Source: Escherichia coli O127:H6 str. E2348/69 (GTDB lineage: Bacteria; Pseudomonadota; Gammaproteobacteria; Enterobacterales; Enterobacteriaceae). From it: 64,000 bases of DNA. The position numbers and the translations under genes are program-made. Of the stretch, positions 8,872-28,739 are shown in pieces. The notes below the pieces were generated by a model. It saw only the letters and a list, made by a program, of their open reading frames with translations. It was not told the DNA's origin and did no database searches. Position 1 is the first letter of the stretch; each line of letters starts with the position of its first letter. The DNA is taken from assembly GCF_000026545.1 (NCBI RefSeq), contig NC_011601.1; one strand, 5' to 3'.

Positions 8872-10146
8872 ATGCAAATGCAGCATCTGATGGTTGGCTA
8901 TCCTAAGTACTACCAAACGGCCGATTATGCGTTGAGGCTTTCAGTGATGGCTGATATAGCAACAATGAGAATGAAGGCTCTGCACTTCTGGGATAAACAC
9001 GGTATTTCTGCAGCTTCTGAAGCCTTTGGCGTGTCCTGCCGCACGCTTTACTGGTGGCGTCAGTTACTGAACAAGGAAGGACCTGAGGGGCTAATCCCGC
9101 ACAGTAAGGCACCTCTGGTGCGACGAAAAAAACACTGGCATCCCGATGTGCTGAAAGAGATTCGACGCCTCAGGACAGAGCTGCCGAACCTCGGTAAAGA
9201 GCAGATTTTTGTTCGCCTGAAGCCCTGGTGCGAACAGCGCTATCTGGCCTGTCCGAGTGTTTCCACCATCGGCAGAATGATCGCTGCCGCACATGATAAA
9301 ATGCGGATGATACCTGTGCGTCTGGGATCGCGGGGGAAGGCACTGCTTGTCAAAAAGCGGTCTGCCAAACCCCGCAGGCCAAAGCACTACCGCCCGGTAA
9401 AGACAGGTGAGCTCATTGGGATGGACGCCATTGAGCTCAGAATGGGCGAACTGCGTCGCTATGTCATCACCATGATCGACGAATGCAGCAATTACGCGCT
9501 GGCGCTGGCTGTGCCGTCACTCAACAGTGATATCGTCAATCACTTCTTCAGCCGCGCAGCCCGGTTGTTCCCGGTCGGTATCAGCCAGATAATCACAGAT
9601 AACGGAAAAGAGTTCCTGGGAAACTTCGACAAAACGCTGCAGGAAGCCGCTATCAAACACCTCTGGACCTATCCCTACACGCCAAAAATGAACGCTATCT
9701 GTGAACGTTTTAACCGGACGTTAAGAGAGCAGTTTATTGAATTTAATGAGATTTTACTCTTTGAAGATCTGGCGCTATTTAACCAGAAGCTGGCGGAATA
9801 TCTGGTGCTGTATAACAGCAAAAGACCCCACAAGGCGCTCGCACTAATGACGCCCGTGGAATATATTTTAAAAGAGAATAAAAATTGCAATATGTGGTGG
9901 ACCCATACAATGTCTTGCCTCCTTGCAAAGAAGAGACTAACATCCGAATTGCTTAGGTTCGAACGTAGGCCTCAGGTTGATAGAAATATCGCCTGGGGCT
10001 TTTGTCCATCTGGAACCTCGCGAATGCTTAACGCCAGACAGCCTCAAGCACCCAACGCCATTCTATACCTGTTAATTTTCCCTGCGATGTTCACCTTTAA
10101 ATGCCGGAATGCTGCTCGCAAAATAAAAACGCCCCATCATTTCTGA
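8872..10146 (+). CDS. IS-like DDE transposase (integrase-core/rve fold, IS481-family-like); C-terminal ~80 codons probably read-through into flanking DNA
   Basis: N-terminal HTH-like segment (GVSCRTLYWWRQ), then integrase catalytic hallmarks (D in MDAIELR, ITDNGKEF, ICERFNRTL). ORF extends into the cysH terminator hairpin at ~10127..10157. Family assignment by motif recognition only. Confidence 0.6.
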   Translation: MQMQHLMVGYPKYYQTADYALRLSVMADIATMRMKALHFWDKHGISAASEAFGVSCRTLYWWRQLLNKEGPEGLIPHSKAPLVRRKKHWHPDVLKEIRRLRTELPNLGKEQIFVRLKPWCEQRYLACPSVSTIGRMIAAAHDKMRMIPVRLGSRGKALLVKKRSAKPRRPKHYRPVKTGELIGMDAIELRMGELRRYVITMIDECSNYALALAVPSLNSDIVNHFFSRAARLFPVGISQIITDNGKEFLGNFDKTLQEAAIKHLWTYPYTPKMNAICERFNRTLREQFIEFNEILLFEDLALFNQKLAEYLVLYNSKRPHKALALMTPVEYILKENKNCNMWWTHTMSCLLAKKRLTSELLRFERRPQVDRNIAWGFCPSGTSRMLNARQPQAPNAILYLLIFPAMFTFKCRNAARKIKTPHHF

Positions 10147-15252: not shown

Positions 15253-16524
15253 ATGGAAGACGACTGCGACATTATTATTATCGGTGCCGGAATTGCTGGC
15301 ACCGCTTGCGCGTTACGCTGCGCGCGAGCGGGTTTATCCGTTTTGTTACTGGAACGAGCGGAGATTCCCGGCAGCAAAAATCTTTCCGGCGGGCGGCTAT
15401 ACACTCATGCGCTCGCGGAACTCCTCCCGCAATTTCACCTGACCGCGCCTCTTGAACGACGCATCACTCACGAAAGTCTTTCTCTGTTAACGCAAGATGG
15501 CGCAACGACGTTTTCCAGCTTACAGCCCGGCGGTGAATCCTGGAGTGTATTACGTGCACGATTCGATCCGTGGCTGGTTGCCGAAGCCGAAAAAGAAGGT
15601 GTCGAATGCATCCCCGGTGCGACGGTAGATGCACTGTATGAAGAAAACGGCAGGGTGTGTGGTGTCATTTGTGGTGACGATATTCTTCGCGCCCGTTATG
15701 TGGTGCTGGCAGAAGGTGCCAACAGCGTCCTGGCGGAACGCCACGGGTTAGTGACTCGTCCTGCTGGCGAAGCGATGGCATTGGGGATCAAAGAAGCGCT
15801 GGCGCTGGAACCATCCGCTATTGAAGAACGTTTTCATCTGGAGAATAACGAAGGCGCAGCGTTGCTGTTCAGCGGCGGAATCTGTGATGACTTACCCGGC
15901 GGCGCATTTCTTTATACTAATCAACAAACGCTCTCGTTAGGGATTGTTTGCCCGCTCTCCTCCCTTACGCAAAGTCGTGTTCCGGCAAGCGAGCTGCTGG
16001 CTCGCTTTAAAACGCATCCGGCAGTGCGCCCGCTTATCAAAAACACGGAATCACTGGAGTATGGTGCGCATCTGGTGCCAGAAGGTGGCCTGCGCAGTAT
16101 GCCGGTGCAATACGCCGGTAACGGCTGGCTGCTGGTGGGCGATGCGTTGCGCAGTTGCGTCAATACCGGAATTTCCGTGCGCGGTATGGATATGGCGCTA
16201 ACTGGCGCGCAGGCGGCGGCACAAACGCTGATAAGCGCCTGCCAGCACCGCGAGCCGCAAAATCTGTTTCCGCTTTATCATCACAACGTAGAGCGCAGCC
16301 TGCTGTGGGATGTTCTACAGCGTTATCAGCATGTTCCGGCGCTTTTGCAACGCCCTGGCTGGTATCGGGTGTGGCCTGGGTTAATGCAGGATATTTCCCG
16401 TGATTTATGGGATCAGGGGAATACACCTGTTCCACCGCTGCGCCAGTTGCTCTGGCGTCATTTACGTCGTCACGGCCTGTGGCATCTGACGGGCGATGTT
16501 ATCAGGAGTCTGCGATGTCTGTAG
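15253..16524 (+). CDS. ygcN: FAD-dependent oxidoreductase, FixC/ETF-quinone-oxidoreductase-like
   Basis: ORF 15223..16524; dinucleotide-binding motif DIIIIGAGIAGTACA near N-terminus; start placed at MEDDCD (423 aa). Confidence 0.85.
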   Translation: MEDDCDIIIIGAGIAGTACALRCARAGLSVLLLERAEIPGSKNLSGGRLYTHALAELLPQFHLTAPLERRITHESLSLLTQDGATTFSSLQPGGESWSVLRARFDPWLVAEAEKEGVECIPGATVDALYEENGRVCGVICGDDILRARYVVLAEGANSVLAERHGLVTRPAGEAMALGIKEALALEPSAIEERFHLENNEGAALLFSGGICDDLPGGAFLYTNQQTLSLGIVCPLSSLTQSRVPASELLARFKTHPAVRPLIKNTESLEYGAHLVPEGGLRSMPVQYAGNGWLLVGDALRSCVNTGISVRGMDMALTGAQAAAQTLISACQHREPQNLFPLYHHNVERSLLWDVLQRYQHVPALLQRPGWYRVWPGLMQDISRDLWDQGNTPVPPLRQLLWRHLRRHGLWHLTGDVIRSLRCL

Positions 16525-16775
16525 CCCGTAATCTCTGGCGCGCTGCCGATGCGCCGCACATTGTTCCGGCTGACTCCGTTGAGCGCCAGACGGCACAACG
16601 GTTGATTAACGCCTGTCCAGCAGGTCTTTTTTCGCTCACACCTGAAGGTGGCTTACGTGTTGATTATCACGGCTGCCTGGAGTGTGGCGCCTGCCGTTTG
16701 CTGTGCGACGAATCAACACTACAACAGTGGCGCTATCCGCCTTCCGGATTCGGCATCACCTACCGCTTTGGATAA
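16515..16775 (+). CDS. ygcO: ferredoxin-like protein (FixX-like)
   Basis: 86-aa product from internal Met MSVARN; Cys-rich (CLECGACRLLC); start overlaps ygcN stop. Confidence 0.8.
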   Translation: MSVARNLWRAADAPHIVPADSVERQTAQRLINACPAGLFSLTPEGGLRVDYHGCLECGACRLLCDESTLQQWRYPPSGFGITYRFG

Positions 16776-16791
16776 ATAATAAGGATAATTT

Positions 16792-17367
16792 ATGCCCCTC
16801 TTACACCTGCTCCGCCAGAATCCGGTGATTGCTGCCGTTAAAGATAATGCCAGCCTGCAACTGGCAATCGACTCTGAATGCCAGTTTATTTCCGTGTTGT
16901 ACGGCAATATCTGCACCATTAGTAATATCGTTAAAAAGATTAAGAACGCCGGGAAATATGCTTTTATTCATGTTGATTTGCTGGAAGGCGCGTCAAATAA
17001 AGAAGTGGTGATTCAGTTTTTGAAACTGGTGACCGAGGCGGACGGAATTATCAGTACCAAAGCCTCAATGCTGAAAGCAGCAAGAGCGGAAGGTTTTTTC
17101 TGTATTCATCGACTGTTTATTGTTGATTCGATTTCGTTTCACAACATTGATAAGCAAGTTGCGCAATCGAATCCGGATTGTATTGAGATCCTGCCAGGCT
17201 GCATGCCTAAAGTGCTGGGCTGGGTGACGGACAAAATCCGCCAACCGCTGATTGCTGGCGGGCTGGTGTGCGATGAAGAAGATGCGCGTAATGCGATTAA
17301 CGCGGGTGTTGTGGCGCTTTCCACCACGAATACTGGGGTCTGGACGTTAGCGAAAAAATTGCTTTGA
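16792..17367 (+). CDS. ygcP: GlpP-family glycerol-3-phosphate-responsive antiterminator homolog
   Basis: 191-aa ORF, length and sequence consistent with the GlpP family; last gene of ygcNOP. Confidence 0.75.
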   Translation: MPLLHLLRQNPVIAAVKDNASLQLAIDSECQFISVLYGNICTISNIVKKIKNAGKYAFIHVDLLEGASNKEVVIQFLKLVTEADGIISTKASMLKAARAEGFFCIHRLFIVDSISFHNIDKQVAQSNPDCIEILPGCMPKVLGWVTDKIRQPLIAGGLVCDEEDARNAINAGVVALSTTNTGVWTLAKKLL

Positions 17368-17514: not shown

Positions 17515-18375
17515 TTATTGGCAATCTGCGTGAATGTTTGTCACCAGTGCCTCCAGCACCACTTTCCAGTCATCAATCACGCCAACATCTGCCTGTGAAA
17601 ATACCGCTGCACTGGCGTCATGATTAATCGCCACCACAAACTTGCTATTGCGTACGCCCGCCATTAACGCTGCTGCGCCGGAAGCGCCAACAACAATACA
17701 CACCTCAGGTGCCAGCAGATGTCCGGAAATACCAATCACTTTTTCGGCATCAACGCCACCGTTCATCACTCGTGCCCGACTGTAGCCCACTTCGGCTCCC
17801 ATCTTTTCTGCCAGCATAGCGATTTCCTGGTTATCTGCCTCTCCGCCCTGCCCCACCACCAGCACCCGTCTGGCCTCAGCTAATGGGTCACGGGTAACAT
17901 TTTTCAGGTTTTCTATGCTGATAAGCCAGTCTGGAAGCGCGCCGGGGACAATGTTCAGTTGCTGCATCCCAGAGGGCAACGTGGCGTTTTTATCTGCTCC
18001 CGCCTGACGTGCCAGCGAAAGGCATAGCGGGCGTTTTTCTGTTTGCAGCGTCGCCGTTAGCGCATTTCCCCAGTGGGATTTGCGCACGCTTACGGTTGGA
18101 ATATCTAACGAAGTCACCTGGCAGATGCTTGCACCATGTAAACGCCAGGCCAGCCGGGTCGACAGTTCATCGCCAAACGTTCCCGGCGGAAAGAGAACAA
18201 CGTCCGCAGGCGTTCGTTGCCACTGTTCCACCAGCACATCCAGCACCTGTTCCGCAACCATCGGCTGTGGTTCTATTTGCCAATGTGCCAGGGTACAACC
18301 GCTGAAATCCTGCGCCGCCAGCCAGCTCGCTATTGCGGCATGTTCCTGATTTATTGTCACAATTGCGATATTCAT
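17515..18375 (-). CDS. ygcQ: electron-transfer flavoprotein alpha-subunit-like protein (FixB-like)
   Basis: ORF 17515..18408; ETF-alpha-like sequence; start placed at MNIAIVTINQ (286 aa). Confidence 0.82.
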   Translation of the reverse strand: MNIAIVTINQEHAAIASWLAAQDFSGCTLAHWQIEPQPMVAEQVLDVLVEQWQRTPADVVLFPPGTFGDELSTRLAWRLHGASICQVTSLDIPTVSVRKSHWGNALTATLQTEKRPLCLSLARQAGADKNATLPSGMQQLNIVPGALPDWLISIENLKNVTRDPLAEARRVLVVGQGGEADNQEIAMLAEKMGAEVGYSRARVMNGGVDAEKVIGISGHLLAPEVCIVVGASGAAALMAGVRNSKFVVAINHDASAAVFSQADVGVIDDWKVVLEALVTNIHADCQ

Positions 18376-19151
18376 GGCTGCATCCTTTGGCGTAAATAGT
18401 CCTGCCATAGCTTTTGCGCTTTTTCTGCTACCGTTTGCCCATCAATCAGCGCCGCTCTGCGTCGTTGCTCTGGCCTTGCCAGTTGCAGGCACTGTATCGC
18501 TGGCGCTTCCGCGGCAACAGTTTCGCGGGTAATCTCCGCTTTCCCCGCCGCCATTCGCTGGCGCATTCCCGGTACTGGCAAGGCCACTTCACCACACTGA
18601 CGCACGGCAATCACCGCAGGCAAGCGAACCCGGCAACAGCGTACCCCATGTTCAGTACGCTGTTCGAGGGTGATAAACGGTGCGTCGAGAGTAAAGCGCT
18701 CCACCTGGGTGAAGCAGGGCCAGACCAGCATTTCCGCCAGCAAAAATGGCGTTTGCCCATTCTGCCCTTCGCTGCTTTGGCAGCCAGTAATTATCAGATC
18801 CAGCGGATTCTGGTACTGCCATTCGGCAATATGGCGAGCGACAAATTCCGGCGCAAAGCACAGATCTGCCGCCGTCTCCAGCAATACAGCGTCCTCAAAC
18901 CCAAGAGCCATGAGATAGCGCAGCCAGTGCAACGCCCGTTCATCCCCCATGCTCAACGCGGTTAAAGACATCGGCGTACCGTTTTTTCTCTGCGCCAACA
19001 GCAGCGCGGCGGCAGCCTGTTCATCGGCACCGAGTAAACTTCGCAGAAGCGAAACATCCGGTCCGATATTACCCTGAGCCGCCGCCTGCCACTCTTTTTC
19101 CGCCAGCATTCCGGCATCCGGTTCGGCTTTAAACGCTAACAGAATGTTCAT
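18372..19151 (-). CDS. ygcR: electron-transfer flavoprotein beta-subunit-like protein (FixA-like)
   Basis: ORF 18372..19157; ETF-beta-like; 4-bp overlap with ygcQ start suggests translational coupling. Confidence 0.82.
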   Translation of the reverse strand: MNILLAFKAEPDAGMLAEKEWQAAAQGNIGPDVSLLRSLLGADEQAAAALLLAQRKNGTPMSLTALSMGDERALHWLRYLMALGFEDAVLLETAADLCFAPEFVARHIAEWQYQNPLDLIITGCQSSEGQNGQTPFLLAEMLVWPCFTQVERFTLDAPFITLEQRTEHGVRCCRVRLPAVIAVRQCGEVALPVPGMRQRMAAGKAEITRETVAAEAPAIQCLQLARPEQRRRAALIDGQTVAEKAQKLWQDYLRQRMQP

Positions 19152-22083: not shown

Positions 22084-22869
22084 TTAGCGCACTAAATAAC
22101 CGCCATCAACCACTAATAAATGTCCGTTGACATAATTCGATGCCGGACTTGCGAGGAATACGGCTGCACCCATTAAATCCTGAGTATCACCCCAACGGTT
22201 TGCCGGAATATGATCAAGAACACGCTGGTTAGTTTCTGGATTACTACGGGTCGCCAGCGTAATATCGGTTGCATAATAACCAGGAGCAATACCATTCACC
22301 TGAATATTATATTGGCCTAATTCATCGCAATAGGCTTTGGTGAATCCGGCAAGAGCATGTTTAGTGGCAGAATAAGCAGGTGACCATTGACCACCTAAGT
22401 AAGAGAACAATGAACAGATATTAATGATTTTACCGCTTTTCTGCGGGATCATAATTTTTGCCGCTTCGTAGCTTAACTCGAATGCGGCGGTCAGGTTCAC
22501 GTCAATCATCGGGTCCCAGTCGGCACGACCAAAGTCCAGCACCTTATTCAGCTTACAAATACCGGCATTGTTAACCAGAATATCTACGGTACCGAAGCGC
22601 TCACAGCAGGCAGCGATAATCTTCTGCGGCGCGCCTTCTGCGGTGATATCCACCTGCATAAAATCAACTTCGACACCCTGTTTTTCAATCATTTCCTTTG
22701 TTTCGCCGTTATCTTTGACGAAACTAGGAATAAAGACATTTGCGCCAGCTTTGGCCAACGCCATGGCAAATGCCTGGCCTAAACCGCTATTCCCGCCAGT
22801 AACAATTGCTGTTTTACCTTTCAGGGAGAAAAAATCCATTGAGAACGCATTGAGAGATTCGATTGACAT
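22084..22869 (-). CDS. ygcW: short-chain dehydrogenase/reductase (KduD / 2-deoxy-D-gluconate 3-dehydrogenase-like)
   Basis: ORF 22084..22944; Rossmann motif TGGNSGLG and catalytic YSATK; start placed at MSIESL (261 aa) because the upstream in-frame extension overlaps a leader hairpin and A/T run. Confidence 0.82.
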   Translation of the reverse strand: MSIESLNAFSMDFFSLKGKTAIVTGGNSGLGQAFAMALAKAGANVFIPSFVKDNGETKEMIEKQGVEVDFMQVDITAEGAPQKIIAACCERFGTVDILVNNAGICKLNKVLDFGRADWDPMIDVNLTAAFELSYEAAKIMIPQKSGKIINICSLFSYLGGQWSPAYSATKHALAGFTKAYCDELGQYNIQVNGIAPGYYATDITLATRSNPETNQRVLDHIPANRWGDTQDLMGAAVFLASPASNYVNGHLLVVDGGYLVR

Positions 22870-22893
22870 AGTTAGCTCCAATTTCCGTAAGGC

Positions 22894-22940
22894 AAAAAAA
22901 AAGAAAGGTAACTTCCCCCGCGAGAGGGAAGTTACCTTTC
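22894..22940 (-). terminator. intrinsic-terminator-like hairpin + U9 tract in the ygcW leader (candidate antitermination target)
   Basis: Perfect 15-bp stem GAAAGGTAACTTCCC (22903..22917) / GGGAAGTTACCTTTC (22926..22940), 8-nt loop; on the minus-strand transcript it is followed by nine U (A-run 22894..22902), ending 24 nt upstream of the ygcW ATG. Confidence 0.6.
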
Positions 22941-22990
22941 TCATTATCTCTGGTAACTGGAGATAATTTTTAGCATAAGGACATAACTGC

Positions 22991-23012
22991 TAATGTGATC
23001 GTAATCACAGTG
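22991..23012. promoter_or_regulatory. CRP binding site (consensus TGTGA-N6-TCACA) in ygcW/yqcE divergent promoter region
   Basis: TGTGATCGTAATCACA at 22994..23009 matches both CRP half-sites perfectly; a further TGTGA half-site follows immediately. Confidence 0.55.
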
Positions 23013-23115
23013 TGATGTTCGTATTGTCAAATAATTTAAAAAAGCAGAAGCGTGATTACTCTCACACAACACCTCTGCTTTCCATGTTATTTCTTATTGC
23101 AATTACTAGAGACCT

Positions 23116-23162
23116 GAGAAAAGTAATCCACCTGAAAGGGCGGCTTACTTTTCTCTTTTTTT
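23116..23162 (+). terminator. hairpin + U7 tract in the yqcE leader (terminator/attenuator-like)
   Basis: Perfect 11-bp stem GAGAAAAGTAA (23116..23126) / TTACTTTTCTC (23145..23155), 18-nt loop, then TTTTTTT (23156..23162), ending 24 nt upstream of the yqcE ATG. Confidence 0.45.
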
Positions 23163-23186
23163 GTCTATTACAAATGGGAATACGAT

Positions 23187-24464
23187 ATGCAACACAACTC
23201 ATATCGCCGTTGGATAACCCTCGCGATAATTAGTTTTAGCGGCGGCGTTAGTTTCGACCTGGCTTATTTACGTTATATTTATCAAATTCCCATGGCAAAA
23301 TTTATGGGATTCAGCAATACCGAGATAGGTTTAATAATGAGTACCTTTGGTATTGCGGCCATTATTTTCTATGCCCCTAGCGGCGTTATTGCCGATAAAT
23401 TTTCACATCGCAAAATGATTACTTCCGCGATGATCATTACCGGATTACTGGGTCTGTTAATGGCAACATATCCACCGCTGTGGGTAATGCTCTGTATTCA
23501 GGTCGCCTTTGCGATAACGACGATTTTAATGCTGTGGTCGGTGTCGATTAAAGCCGCATCGTTGCTGGGCGATCATAGCGAGCAAGGGAAAATTATGGGC
23601 TGGATGGAAGGGCTGCGCGGCGTCGGTGTAATGTCGCTGGCGGTGTTTACCATGTGGGTCTTTTCTCGCTTTGCACCGGATGACAGCGCCAGCCTGAAAA
23701 CGGTCATTATTATCTATAGTGTGGTTTACATTCTGCTGGGCATTTTGTGTTGGTTTTTTGTTAGCGATAACAACAATCTGCGCAGTGCCAATAACGAAGA
23801 AAAACAGTCATTCCAGCTTAGCGACATCCTGGCCGTTTTGCGCATCAGCACCACCTGGTATTGCAGCATGGTGATTTTTGGTGTCTTCACCATCTACGCC
23901 ATTCTGAGTTACTCCACCAACTATCTGACCGAAATGTACGGCATGTCGTTGGTGGCGGCGAGCTACATGGGGATTGTGATCAACAAAATCTTCCGCGCGC
24001 TGTGCGGCCCACTTGGCGGCATTATCACCACCTACAGTAAAGTGAAATCCCCTACCCGCGTGGTCCAAATCCTTTCCATCATCGGTTTGCTGGCGTTGAC
24101 AGCCCTGCTCGTCACGAACTCTAACCCGCAATCGGTCGCGATGGGGATTGGCCTGATTTTATTACTGGGATTCACCTGTTACGCCTCACGCGGGCTGTAC
24201 TGGGCCTGCCCTGGCGAAGCGAGAACACCGTCTTACATTATGGGCACCACGGTAGGTATTTGTTCGGTGATTGGATTTCTGCCGGATGTCTTCGTTTACC
24301 CGATTATCGGCTACTGGCAAGACACCCTGCCCGCTGCAGAAGCCTACCGCAACATGTGGCTAATGGGCATGGCGGCGCTTGGCATGGTGATCATCTTTAC
24401 CTTTTTGCTGTTCCAAAAAATTCGTACTGCTGATAGCGCCCCCGCAATGGCTAGCAGCAAGTAA
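23187..24464 (+). CDS. yqcE: MFS transporter
   Basis: 425-aa ORF, 12-TM-type hydrophobic profile. Confidence 0.82.
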   Translation: MQHNSYRRWITLAIISFSGGVSFDLAYLRYIYQIPMAKFMGFSNTEIGLIMSTFGIAAIIFYAPSGVIADKFSHRKMITSAMIITGLLGLLMATYPPLWVMLCIQVAFAITTILMLWSVSIKAASLLGDHSEQGKIMGWMEGLRGVGVMSLAVFTMWVFSRFAPDDSASLKTVIIIYSVVYILLGILCWFFVSDNNNLRSANNEEKQSFQLSDILAVLRISTTWYCSMVIFGVFTIYAILSYSTNYLTEMYGMSLVAASYMGIVINKIFRALCGPLGGIITTYSKVKSPTRVVQILSIIGLLALTALLVTNSNPQSVAMGIGLILLLGFTCYASRGLYWACPGEARTPSYIMGTTVGICSVIGFLPDVFVYPIIGYWQDTLPAAEAYRNMWLMGMAALGMVIIFTFLLFQKIRTADSAPAMASSK

Positions 24465-24490
24465 GCCAGGAAAATTACAGGAGAAAAATC

Positions 24491-25969
24491 ATGTCGAAAA
24501 AATACATCATAGGGATTGATGGCGGAAGTCAGAGCACAAAAGTGGTGATGTACGATCTGGAAGGTAATGTGGTTTGCGAAGGCAAAGGCTTATTGCAGCC
24601 GATGCACACGCCAGATGCCGATACCGCAGAACATCCTGACGACGATTTATGGGCATCACTATGTTTTGCCAGTCACGATTTGATGAGCCAGTTTGCCGGA
24701 AATAAAGAAGATATTGTCGGCATTGGCCTGGGCTCAATCCGTTGCTGCCGTGCGTTATTGAAAGCCGATGGTACGCCAGCCGCGCCGTTGATTAGCTGGC
24801 AGGATGCACGCGTTACACGCCCTTACGAACACACTAATCCTGACGTGGCCTATGTCACCTCTTTTTCGGGTTATCTGACACATCGCTTAACCGGCGAGTT
24901 TAAAGACAATATCGCCAACTATTTTGGTCAGTGGCCGGTGGATTATAAGAGCTGGGCATGGAGCGAAAATGCCGCGGTAATGGAAAAGTTTAATATCCCC
25001 CGCCAGATGCTTTTTGACGTGCAAATGCCAGGCACTGTTCTTGGGCATATCACACCACAAGCTGCGCTGGCGACACATTTCCCGGCTGGGCTGCCGGTTG
25101 TTTGTACCACCAGTGATAAACCGGTAGAAGCTCTGGGAGCCGGGTTACTGGATGATGAAACGGCGGTAATTTCTCTTGGCACCTACATCGCGTTGATGAT
25201 GAACGGCAAAGCACTGCCGAAAGATCCGGTCGCGTACTGGCCGATTATGTCTTCTATTCCGCAAACATTGCTGTATGAAGGTTACGGTATTCGCAAAGGC
25301 ATGTGGACGGTGAGCTGGCTGCGCGACATGTTAGGCGAGTCGTTAATTCAGGATGCCAAAGCACAGGATCTTTCACCGGAAGATTTGCTCAACAAAAAAG
25401 CGTCTTGCGTGCCACCTGGTTGTAATGGGCTGATGACGGTGCTGGACTGGCTGACCAATCCGTGGGAACCGTACAAACGCGGAATTATGATCGGCTTTGA
25501 TTCCAGCATGGATTACGCATGGATATATCGTTCGATACTGGAAAGCGTGGCGCTGACGCTGAAGAACAATTACGACAATATGTGTAATGAAATGAATCAC
25601 TTTGCAAAGCATGTGATCATTACTGGCGGCGGTTCGAACAGCGATCTGTTTATGCAGATTTTTGCCGACGTGTTCAACCTTCCGGCACGCCGTAACGCCA
25701 TTAATGGTTGTGCAAGTCTGGGGGCAGCGATCAATACGGCGGTAGGTCTGGGGCTATACCCGGATTACGCAACGGCTGTCGACAAAATGGTTCGCGTGAA
25801 AGATATCTTTATGCCTGTTGAGAGCAACGCCAAACGCTACGACGCGATGAATAAAGGCATTTTCAAAGACCTAACCAAACACACTGATGTGATCCTGAAA
25901 AAATCGTATGAAGTGATGCATGGGGAATTGGGGAATGCGGATTCGATCCAGAGCTGGTCGAATGCGTAA
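24491..25969 (+). CDS. ygcE: FGGY-family carbohydrate kinase
   Basis: 492-aa ORF with N-terminal IGIDGGSQSTK motif typical of FGGY sugar kinases. Confidence 0.85.
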   Translation: MSKKYIIGIDGGSQSTKVVMYDLEGNVVCEGKGLLQPMHTPDADTAEHPDDDLWASLCFASHDLMSQFAGNKEDIVGIGLGSIRCCRALLKADGTPAAPLISWQDARVTRPYEHTNPDVAYVTSFSGYLTHRLTGEFKDNIANYFGQWPVDYKSWAWSENAAVMEKFNIPRQMLFDVQMPGTVLGHITPQAALATHFPAGLPVVCTTSDKPVEALGAGLLDDETAVISLGTYIALMMNGKALPKDPVAYWPIMSSIPQTLLYEGYGIRKGMWTVSWLRDMLGESLIQDAKAQDLSPEDLLNKKASCVPPGCNGLMTVLDWLTNPWEPYKRGIMIGFDSSMDYAWIYRSILESVALTLKNNYDNMCNEMNHFAKHVIITGGGSNSDLFMQIFADVFNLPARRNAINGCASLGAAINTAVGLGLYPDYATAVDKMVRVKDIFMPVESNAKRYDAMNKGIFKDLTKHTDVILKKSYEVMHGELGNADSIQSWSNA

Positions 25970-26133: not shown

Positions 26134-27054
26134 ATGAGCGCAAGAGTATGGGTACTCGGTGATGCGGTTGTTGATTTATTACCCGAAAGCCAGGGGAGAC
26201 TACTACAGTGTCCTGGCGGGGCGCCTGCTAATGTTGCAGTCGGTATCGCAAGGCTGGGGGGGAAAAGTGCCTTTATTGGCAAAGTTGGCGATGATCCTTT
26301 CGGTCGCTTTATGTATCAGACACTGAGTACAGAAAATGTTGATACACGTTATATGTCTCTTGATCCTCAACAACGCACCTCAATTGTGGCTGTAGGACTT
26401 GATGAGCAAGGAGAAAGAAACTTTACCTTTATGGTACGCCCAAGTGCCGATCTTTTTTTACAACCTGATGACCTTCCTACATTTGGGCCGGGTGAATGGC
26501 TCCATCTTTGTTCCATTGCGCTCAGTGCAGAACCTTCCCGAAGTACCGCATTTCTGGCTATGGAGAAAATACGTCAGGCTGGCGGAAACATCAGTTTTGA
26601 TCCCAATATCCGCAGCGATCTCTGGCAGAGTGAAGCGCTATTAAGAAAATACCTTGATCGCGCGCTTTCGCTGGCGAATATCGCTAAATTGTCCGAAGAA
26701 GAGTTGCTATTCATCAGTGGCGAAAGCCAGGTTCAGCAAGGCGCATATTCATTAGTACAACGTTATTCGTTGACTTTATTGCTTATCACACAAGGAAAAA
26801 ATGGCGTACTTGTGTATTTTCAGGGGCAGTTTATCCACTATCCCGCCAAACCTGTTTCTGTCGTCGATACGACCGGGGCAGGAGATGCTTTTGTCGCTGG
26901 ATTACTTGCAGGTCTGGCTGATTCTGGAATACCAACAAATACCAGACAGCTTGAACGAATCATTGCACAAGCTCAGATTTGTGGTGCTCTGGCGACCACG
27001 GCTAAAGGCGCGATGACCGCCTTACCCCGACAACACGATCTCCCTTCACAATAG
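26134..27054 (+). CDS. scrK: fructokinase (ROK/PfkB ribokinase-family)
   Basis: 306-aa ORF with GGAPANVA and C-terminal DTTGAGDAF motifs; first gene of a scr-type cluster. Confidence 0.85.
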   Translation: MSARVWVLGDAVVDLLPESQGRLLQCPGGAPANVAVGIARLGGKSAFIGKVGDDPFGRFMYQTLSTENVDTRYMSLDPQQRTSIVAVGLDEQGERNFTFMVRPSADLFLQPDDLPTFGPGEWLHLCSIALSAEPSRSTAFLAMEKIRQAGGNISFDPNIRSDLWQSEALLRKYLDRALSLANIAKLSEEELLFISGESQVQQGAYSLVQRYSLTLLLITQGKNGVLVYFQGQFIHYPAKPVSVVDTTGAGDAFVAGLLAGLADSGIPTNTRQLERIIAQAQICGALATTAKGAMTALPRQHDLPSQ

Positions 27055-27105
27055 TGATCCTGCTGTTGTATCTGTAACCCGATTTGTCGTGCCTGTCACA
27101 TTTAC

Positions 27106-27177
27106 TAAATCGGTTTAGCGAAAATAATTGCTCTGGCTAAAAAGTCAGCTTTATTATCAACACCTAAACCGGTTTAG
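27106..27177. promoter_or_regulatory. two putative ScrR operators in scrY promoter region
   Basis: CTAAATCGGTTTAG (27106..27119, near-palindrome) and CTAAACCGGTTTAG (27164..27177, perfect 14-bp palindrome), 45-115 bp upstream of scrY. Confidence 0.55.
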
Positions 27178-27197
27178 CATTTTAGCAATTTTTATAA

Positions 27198-28739
<1,542 letters not shown>

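Follow-up and report, generated by a model that had tools for sequence, protein, structure and literature searches.

We found that a hairpin followed by a run of uridines in the leader of yqcE, within a 64,000-nucleotide stretch of Escherichia coli O127:H6 str. E2348/69 (contig NC_011601.1 of assembly GCF_000026545.1; hereafter the window), is a real intrinsic terminator inside an mRNA leader and one of a conserved pair, the other lying in the leader of the divergently transcribed ygcW. It seems likely, although well short of certain, that both are conditional terminators that depend on YgcP, a GlpP-family protein encoded in the same gene cluster, in a manner analogous to GlpP at Bacillus glpD and downstream of class II CRP promoters. 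Termination at these sites had already been published; what is new here is the paralogy of the two leaders, their conservation beyond the Enterobacterales, the linkage to ygcP, the compensatory changes in the stems, and a second helix that a 5' box could form with the 5' arm of the terminator.

Structure of the two leader terminators

The ygcW-yqcE intergenic region spans 317 bp, with the ATG of ygcW at 22869 (minus strand) and that of yqcE at 23187 (plus strand). Positions 23116-23162 read GAGAAAAGTAA-tccacctgaaagggcggc-TTACTTTTCTC-TTTTTTT, with GAGAAAAGTAA at 23116-23126 and TTACTTTTCTC at 23145-23155. The original prediction, made from the sequence of the window, had described an 11-bp perfect stem between these two segments, U7 at 23156-23162, and 24 nt (23163-23186) up to the yqcE ATG, and all of these are exact. 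It had also described an 18-nt loop; 18 nt do separate the arms, but they are not open, being mostly paired among themselves (CC.CCU-GAAA-GGG.GG). The folded RNA, upper stem included, is a hairpin of about 16 bp capped by a GAAA tetraloop, with a minimum free energy (MFE) of -21.4 kcal/mol versus -10.0 +/- 2.3 in dinucleotide shuffles (n=200; z = -4.87), and none of the shuffles (0/200) folded as stably. It thus has both components of an intrinsic terminator, a stable stem-loop and then a U-tract on the transcribed strand. A simple terminator scan missed it because of a loop limit of 8 nt, while detecting the ygcW hairpin, and the only promoter called by the simple scan was uninformative. A search of the intergenic region against Rfam 15 with permissive E-values returned chance matches only (SurA at 23 bits, versus a gathering score of 100, and some miRNA models).

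A 501-bp region including the element is 100% identical to that of strain MCJCHV-1 and 98.4% identical to that of K-12, with one or two occurrences per E. coli genome. The U-tract is U7 in the window strain, U8 in K-12, and U7 to U9 in other genera. There are also substitutions relative to K-12 at window positions 23093 and 23099 (C/A and G/T), in the presumed -10 region of yqcE, and these, together with the U7/U8 difference, could alter promoter strength and termination efficiency between strains.

The mirror-image counterpart that the original prediction placed in the ygcW leader is also real, with a hairpin, U9, and 24 nt to the ATG at 22869. Its 19-bp hairpin is stronger than that of yqcE (-31.5 kcal/mol, z = -6.4). 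Aligned as RNA, the yqcE and ygcW leaders match from transcription start to start codon. Four blocks recur in both: CARTTACYAGAGA as the 5' box, the two arms of the stem (TGAGAAARGTAA ... TTACYTTTCT), the U-tract, and a portion of the spacer. Within the ygcW stem, A>G in the 5' arm is matched by a compensating U>C in the 3' arm. On the evidence of this alignment, the two leaders are paralogous over their whole length from transcription start to start codon, and the presence of one sequence motif in both argues for a common controller. No third copy was found in the window, searched with stem and box patterns, nor in 1.2 Mb of related loci, searched with a covariance model. As no copy lies upstream of ygcN, ygcS, or ygcP, we rejected the notion that the element is present in front of all operons of the cluster.

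Termination in vivo

Romero et al. (2014) listed two "potential novel sRNAs" (small RNAs) in this intergenic region of K-12, both classed as single extended stem-loops (PMC4681348). The first, ecr2775 (plus strand, 2898527-2898590 of U00096.2, 63 nt), was detected by RNA-seq and verified by Northern blotting (their Fig. 7 and Table S5), and the second is ecr2774 (minus strand, 2898315-2898388, 73 nt) (PMC4681348). Mapped by alignment of K-12 and the window, ecr2775 covers approximately 23101-23163, with its 5' end 15 nt before the stem and its 3' end just past the U-tract, and ecr2774 covers 22962-22889. A transcription start downstream of the U-tract would have told against the original prediction; the K-12 start, 2898527, corresponds to window position ~23101, upstream of the hairpin. 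Adams et al. (2021) reported dominant Term-seq 3' ends at both hairpins (PMC7815308, supplementary file 3; Table 1), neither with a significant Rho score and both with intrinsic-terminator scores over the value of 3 above which intrinsic termination is predicted, and noted no regulator for either site (PMC7815308). The coordinates coincide with our two hairpins, so that the ecr RNAs and the Term-seq ends are the same physical RNAs as those analyzed here. Together, they document premature, Rho-independent termination in both leaders, although it was left unexplained: unlike the present analysis, the two catalogues include no mechanism, conservation analysis, or regulator, and a possible grouping with repetitive extragenic palindromic (REP)-like sequences finds no support in our data. 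The element has no Rfam family, and nothing on it as a conditional terminator was found in the literature searched. The Rho-independent ends at both hairpins and the motif common to both leaders support the coordinated postinitiation control of the two divergent operons that had been suggested in the original prediction.

Conservation across Enterobacterales and beyond

A genome scan with YqcE gave 59 loci in Enterobacterales, from Escherichia to Serratia, Pantoea, Budvicia, and Limnobaculum, and the divergent unit ygcU-ygcW <-> yqcE-ygcE was present throughout. Complete ygcW/yqcE intergenic regions numbered 57 (56 public Enterobacterales loci plus the window), and in all of them (57/57) both leaders have the hairpin, a tract of U7-9, and the 5' box. 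From an alignment (A3) of 101 distinct element sequences, we built a covariance model (R1) that, over the 1.2 Mb of loci, matched exactly two sites per locus, both in the ygcW-yqcE intergenic region, and nothing else. The terminator helix is paired in 90.8% of the cells of A3, a figure that falls to 66% or less once the 3' partner is shifted by 1 to 3 columns, with changes on both sides in seven pairs, and RNAalifold predicted the same helix unguided. In Sporomusa, the lower stem is compensated as GAGGAUAG/CUGUCCUC. The comparative alignment that the original prediction had called for therefore shows both stems kept, with compensatory changes, in Enterobacterales and beyond. R1 scores approximately 80 bits on the sense strand versus approximately 36 bits on the opposite one; this difference, the many G-U pairs, and the one-sided U-tract show that the object under selection is the sense RNA, not a DNA palindrome.

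The identical 24-nt spacing to both start codons, to which the original prediction had attached meaning, does not hold across genera: spacer length varies between 19 and 150 nt in front of yqcE and between 20 and 32 nt in front of ygcW. We therefore rejected a functionally fixed spacing, since even an insertion resembling an enterobacterial repetitive intergenic consensus (ERIC) sequence is tolerated; the equal spacing in Escherichia and close relatives is a by-product of paralogy, that is, of common descent and not of a functional rule. ERIC-like repeats between the yqcE terminator and the ATG are found in Klebsiella spallanzanii and Citrobacter youngae; in loci L008 and L010 (positions 9853-10000 in each), an ERIC/IRU-like insertion of ~127 bp stretches the yqcE spacer to 150 nt.

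Several loci depart from the usual arrangement. In Limnobaculum eriocheiris (L035:9870-10001), the ygcW-yqcE intergenic region is only 130 nt long and contains just one hairpin, placed between A9 and T9. A single palindrome thus serves both directions, and there is no room for CRP sites or promoters; the two inverted copies seem to have collapsed into one. In Enterobacillus, Limnobaculum allomyrinae, and Budvicia (L032, L033, and L058, ~9570-9970), the yqcE and ygcW elements are near-identical within each genome, variable loop included, which suggests gene conversion between inverted copies. Two public records, a "Planctomycetota MAG" (metagenome-assembled genome) contig that is 100% identical to E. 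coli here (L061) and a "Chryseobacterium sp." contig with a typical Enterobacteriaceae locus (L052), are probably the result of contamination or mis-binning.

Both leaders lie downstream of CRP sites (Table 1). The perfect site at 22996-23011, on the ygcW side, bound CRP with a Kd (dissociation constant) of 1.7 nM in Footprint-seq (PMC12871828) and had been predicted earlier by PhyloScan (PMC1794230). The distance from the center of the CRP site to the box recurs in ~50/57 leaders on each side, and a CRP-like site at a conserved class II distance implies that the box is the first part of the RNA. We propose an architecture with class II activation by CRP at initiation and a pathway-specific decision at the leader terminator.

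A candidate antiterminator helix

The conserved 5' box and the upper part of the terminator 5' arm have complementary sequences. The box is AGUUACU in most lineages and AUUACU in the Escherichia yqcE leader, while the arm is AGUAACU or AGUAAU. At least six contiguous box/arm base pairs can form in 107/110 elements, versus 6% of shuffled upstream sequences, closing a loop of 14 to 18 nt. On A3, this helix is paired in 85% of the cells versus at most 54% when slid, and two pairs of columns covary (G-C in 54 versus A-U in 32 sequences; U-A in 59 versus C-G in 24). We found at least four independent compensated variants (AUUACU/AGUAAU, AGUUACC/GGUAACU, AGUUGCC/GGCGACU, and UUGCU/AGCGA), the third of them in an Enterobacteriaceae MAG (L024) in which the 3' arm of the terminator has changed as well, and the fourth in Fodinisporobacter, where CGCU/AGCG also occurs. 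Sporomusa has AAUUACU/AGUAAUU. U23127 of the Escherichia yqcE leader has no partner in the terminator but pairs with A23102 in the alternative helix. Within the loop, GAG (columns 16-18) and GAGAAA (columns 25-30) are invariant in the 101 distinct elements and are kept in the Vibrio and Firmicutes copies.

In every lineage tested, the MFE structure of the nascent RNA is the box/arm hairpin (-6.7 kcal/mol for E. coli ygcW and -4.4 to -6.7 kcal/mol outside E. coli, the E. coli yqcE leader being the weakest). That it is far weaker than the terminator is what would be expected if a protein must stabilize it. The box helix is thus a candidate antiterminator.

Linkage of the element to ygcP

The gene ygcP lies ~6 kb upstream of the element in the same gene cluster, and is annotated in K-12 as "putative anti-terminator regulatory protein." YgcP matches Pfam PF04309 over the full model length (E = 2.7e-62) and PDB 3KTS, the Listeria glycerol uptake operon antiterminator (E = 2e-27); only two PDB entries match PF04309, 3KTS and 1VKF, and neither is reported with RNA. 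In every enterobacterial ygcW/yqcE locus but one (L043) with enough flanking DNA to tell, ygcP is present, either within ygcN-O-P or immediately downstream of ygcE, the latter in Serratia, Erwinia, and Pantoea.

The same association is found at a much larger phylogenetic distance. YgcP is 55 to 63% identical to homologs in Clostridium, Thalassobacillus, Sporomusa, Fodinisporobacter, Vibrio, and Photobacterium, which in each case examined adjoin the same SDR, FGGY-kinase, and FAD-oxidase genes, with or without electron transfer flavoprotein (ETF) genes. The leaders of these operons gave R1 matches in Vibrio, Clostridium, Sporomusa, Thalassobacillus, and Fodinisporobacter. Vibrio hannami and Fodinisporobacter have two divergent copies each, Clostridium sediminicola has one before the SDR operon and a second between the kinase and oxidase genes, and Sporomusa has one before the SDR operon and a second before a BCCT transporter gene. 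In Clostridium, a TTGACA-N17-TATACT promoter directly precedes the box. A scan of metagenomes with the RNA pattern alone retrieved five contigs, four with ygc catabolic genes and a fifth, a 1.3-kb fragment, with a YgcP homolog only; all the contigs extending far enough to show a YgcP homolog (4/4) had one. That one RNA sequence accompanies a single protein family and a single set of genes in different phyla is best understood if the RNA is the target of that protein.

With regard to the gene itself, YgcP is 95 to 97% identical between Escherichia and Citrobacter or Klebsiella, while its neighbors YgcN, YgcO, YgcQ, and YgcR (window 15253-16775 and 17515-19151) are only 57 to 78% identical, and by this comparison YgcP appears to be under much stronger constraint than the surrounding ETF-type genes. 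NCBIfam has no YgcP model and gave only subthreshold kinase and dehydrogenase matches for YgcE, YgcW, and YgcU, from which no substrate can be inferred. In five loci from Firmicutes and Vibrio (L062, L064, L066, L067, and L068), BCCT or OpuA-type transporters (betaine/choline/carnitine family) replace the enterobacterial MFS transporters, and this may be a clue to the substrate of the module.

Comparison with known antitermination systems

In Bacillus subtilis, each operon controlled by GlpP combines a promoter and a GlpP site with an inherent terminator in its 5' untranslated region (UTR) (PMC9604022, PMC10573289), and GlpP is reported to bind the leader RNA and to be required for read-through (PMC9604022). 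The ygc system resembles glpD, glpFK, and glpTQ in that a PF04309 regulator is encoded with its regulon, several operons have a promoter and then an inherent terminator in a short 5' UTR ~25 to 30 nt from the start codon, a catabolite regulator acts at initiation while the pathway-specific signal acts at termination (as proposed here for ygc), and an FGGY kinase in the pathway could make a phosphorylated inducer. The joint action of CcpA and GlpP at B. subtilis glpFK, as cited in PMC9604022, would parallel that of CRP and the leader terminator. We also folded one GlpP leader, the glpD 5' UTR (PMC9604022, Table S4), whose GAG-rich loop is closed by a short helix (GGUC.../...GACC) overlapping the 5' arm of the terminator; the likeness of this fold to the box/arm hairpin, coming from a single sequence, is only suggestive.

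The differences are also clear. The host of the ygc system is Gram negative, and its regulon deals not with glycerol but consists of an SDR, an FAD oxidase, ETF proteins, MFS transporters, and a kinase; the RNA sequence is GAGAAAAGUAAC... instead of GAGAGACCAC...; and there are two divergent mirror copies behind class II CRP sites, with a role for YgcP that is predicted from sequence and context. We know of no GlpP-type antitermination described in Proteobacteria, nor did we find any in the literature searched. The other relevant comparison is with BglG/SacY and their ribonucleic antiterminator (RAT) hairpin, in which, as proposed for ygc, a weak 5' antiterminator hairpin overlaps the terminator 5' arm and is stabilized by an RNA-binding protein of a sugar pathway. 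However, BglG/SacY are PRD-containing proteins with a CAT domain and not PF04309 proteins, the RNA consensus differs, and there is no phosphotransferase system component in the ygc cluster.

Proposed mechanism

In the mechanism that we propose, transcription would start ~15 nt upstream of the stem at a class II CRP-dependent promoter and, by default, the terminator would form and RNA polymerase would release an RNA of ~63 nt. Alternatively, the first nucleotides of the RNA (AUUACU) could pair with the top of the 5' arm (AGUAAU) in a weak hairpin with a 14-nt loop containing two conserved GAGA motifs. YgcP loaded with inducer, presumably the phosphorylated product of the FGGY kinase YgcE, would bind and stabilize this hairpin, which would block the terminator and allow read-through into yqcE-ygcE. 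The paralogous element in the ygcW-ygcU-ygcS-ygcR-ygcQ leader would work likewise, so that both operons would answer to one protein.

Several observations weigh against this proposal. The main 3' ends seen by Term-seq lie 4 to 5 nt inside the 3' arm (window 23152 and 22907, position checked on the K-12 sequence) and not at the U-tract, probably because 3' exonucleases trim the RNA through the lower stem, which is rich in A-U pairs. Sequence conservation of the lower stem and the box is so high that pairing is inseparable from direct sequence recognition, and most of the box/arm covariation traces to few evolutionary events. The E. coli yqcE antiterminator hairpin is very weak on its own (-1.4 kcal/mol), and there is a terminal box/arm mismatch in four Rahnella/Ewingella yqcE leaders and in L031. 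In Serratia microhaemolytica (L043), ygcP is outside the 21-kb locus, and a homolog (P0051) is on a different contig. R1 has no match before ygcN-ygcO-ygcP or ygcS, so that not every operon of the cluster is covered. Finally, literature searches on ygcP, other ygc genes, and PF04309/GlpP-like proteins returned nothing on the function of YgcP or on YgcP with these RNAs.

Alternative explanations

The terminator could also be constitutive and unregulated, a leaky intrinsic terminator or 5' stabilizing stem-loop that damps yqcE-ygcE to a basal level, with CRP as sole regulator and YgcP uninvolved. Termination was seen in standard media, strong CRP sites flank both promoters, and there is no experimental evidence for an antiterminator in the literature searched, all as such a damper would have it. 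However, it would not account for the 5' box and the invariant GAGA motifs that precede the stem, for the covarying alternative helix, or for the association, across phyla, of this very RNA sequence with a gene of the GlpP family, and we consider it unlikely.

Another possibility, which we judge quite improbable, is that ecr2775 and ecr2774 are genes for trans-acting sRNAs, base pairing with mRNAs or sponging a protein, and that their place before yqcE and ygcW is incidental. They did appear in a list of potential novel sRNAs, the abundance of ecr2775 sufficed for Northern detection, each has its own promoter and a terminator with a U-tail, and some 5' UTR fragments do act in trans (Adams et al., PMC7815308). 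Yet the element is always directly upstream of the same coding genes, in sense orientation, in both Proteobacteria and Firmicutes, one Clostridium copy is inside an operon, and there is no conserved seed outside the terminator, box, and GAGA segment, the GAGA loop being the only conserved unpaired segment (targets were not searched). A secondary role in trans of the short RNAs, such as titration of YgcP, is possible.

The conserved alternative structure and invariant loop sequence would also suit a very small riboswitch, in which the box/arm hairpin and its purine-rich loop bind a metabolite and YgcP is an enzyme or accessory factor; the PF04309 structures without reported RNA (3KTS and 1VKF) and the lack of an Rfam match are in keeping with this. 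Against it, only ~27 nt are available for an aptamer, GlpP, the founding member of the family, is reported to bind leader RNA and to be required for read-through (PMC9604022), and the tight linkage to a protein gene fits a protein-RNA pair, all of which makes a riboswitch highly doubtful. There is likewise only a slim chance that the ~65-nt element is a self-sufficient riboswitch class for which the proteins of the GlpP family, B. subtilis GlpP among them, serve as enzymes or accessory factors, or that the 63- and 73-nt RNAs are decoys that titrate YgcP and so set a threshold.

Lastly, although the element is palindromic as DNA and was tentatively grouped with REP-like repeats by Romero et al., a DNA-level element is extremely improbable, and the readings as a DNA operator or as a repeat of the REP or bacterial interspersed mosaic element (BIME) type were rejected on copy number (two only in the window and per related locus, both in the ygcW-yqcE intergenic region) and strand-specific conservation (G-U pairs and a one-sided U-tract), with no DNA-binding regulator conserved in the cluster and RNA 3' ends mapping to the site.

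Features of the region

The coordinates of the elements discussed are collected in Table 1. Downstream of ygcE (window 26134-28739), the strain encodes a fructokinase (NCBIfam NF006957, 511 bits) and a porin of the maltoporin family, which fits a sucrose (scr-like) island not present in K-12 at this position.

Table 1. Features of the yqcE and ygcW leaders and associated genes (window positions unless another record is given)
Feature	Coordinates	Strand	Evidence or remarks
Whole yqcE leader element	23101..23163	+	Equals K-12 ecr2775; R1 match 23095-23165, 76.1 bits
5' box AUUACU, RNA +2 to +7	23102..23107	+	Proposed 5' strand of antiterminator helix; pairs with 23122-23127
14-nt purine-rich loop AGAGACCUGAGAAA of proposed antiterminator hairpin	23108..23121	+	Candidate protein-binding site
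AGUAAU, common to antiterminator and terminator 5' arm	23122..23127	+	Box/arm pairing analysis
Terminator 5' arm GAGAAAAGUAA	23116..23126	+	Sequence, fold, alignment
Upper stem and GAAA tetraloop (CC.CCU GAAA GGG.GG)	23128..23143	+	Sequence varies by genus; compensatory changes, columns 37-42 with 54-59
Terminator 3' arm UUACUUUUCUC	23145..23155	+	K-12 dominant Term-seq 3' end 2900556 = window 23152
U-tract, U7	23156..23162	+	Sequence
24-nt spacer with Shine-Dalgarno-like GGGA, then yqcE start codon	23163..23189	+	Sequence
Operon yqcE (MFS transporter) and ygcE (FGGY sugar kinase), controlled by the element	23187..25969	+	Annotation
Term-seq 3' end, yqcE, offset -36 from ATG	2900556 (U00096.3)	+	Rho score 0.61, not significant; intrinsic-terminator score 11.4 (PMC7815308)
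Term-seq 3' end, ygcW, offset -38 from ATG	2900311 (U00096.3)	-	Rho score 0.50, not significant; intrinsic-terminator score 15.8 (PMC7815308)
CRP-like site cGTGAttactcTCACA, proposed class II CRP promoter of yqcE	23051..23066	.	Center ~42.5 nt upstream of box; distance shared by 50/57 yqcE-side leaders
Perfect CRP site TGTGAtcgtaaTCACA	22996..23011	.	Center ~41.5 nt upstream of ygcW leader start
Paralogous ygcW leader element	22889..22962	-	Equals ecr2774 (73 nt); R1 82 bits
ygcW leader components	Box AGUUACC 22958-22952; shared arm GGUAACU 22936-22930; stem 22942..22901; U9 22902-22894	-	
ygcP, GlpP-family (G3P_antiterm) protein, proposed trans-acting antiterminator of both leaders	16792..17367	+	PF04309 match

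Implications

Textbooks give, to our knowledge, a single example from E. coli K-12 of a catabolic operon under a pathway-specific antiterminator protein, namely BglG. If YgcP works as proposed, it would be the second such system in E. coli, based on an unrelated protein family and located in a ten-gene cluster of y-genes, with both of its RNA targets already visible in published Term-seq and Northern data. In the literature searched, the RNA element recognized by GlpP-family proteins has not been defined at the sequence level, and the comparative motif described here, a short helix that closes a GAGA-rich loop and overlaps the terminator, spanning Proteobacteria and Firmicutes, provides a candidate that can be mutated. 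Like glpD before it, it might also find use in synthetic biology as a compact and portable terminator/antiterminator pair. In practical terms, the element provides a way to find out what the ygc/yqc cluster does, since a fusion of the leader to a reporter should respond to the true substrate.

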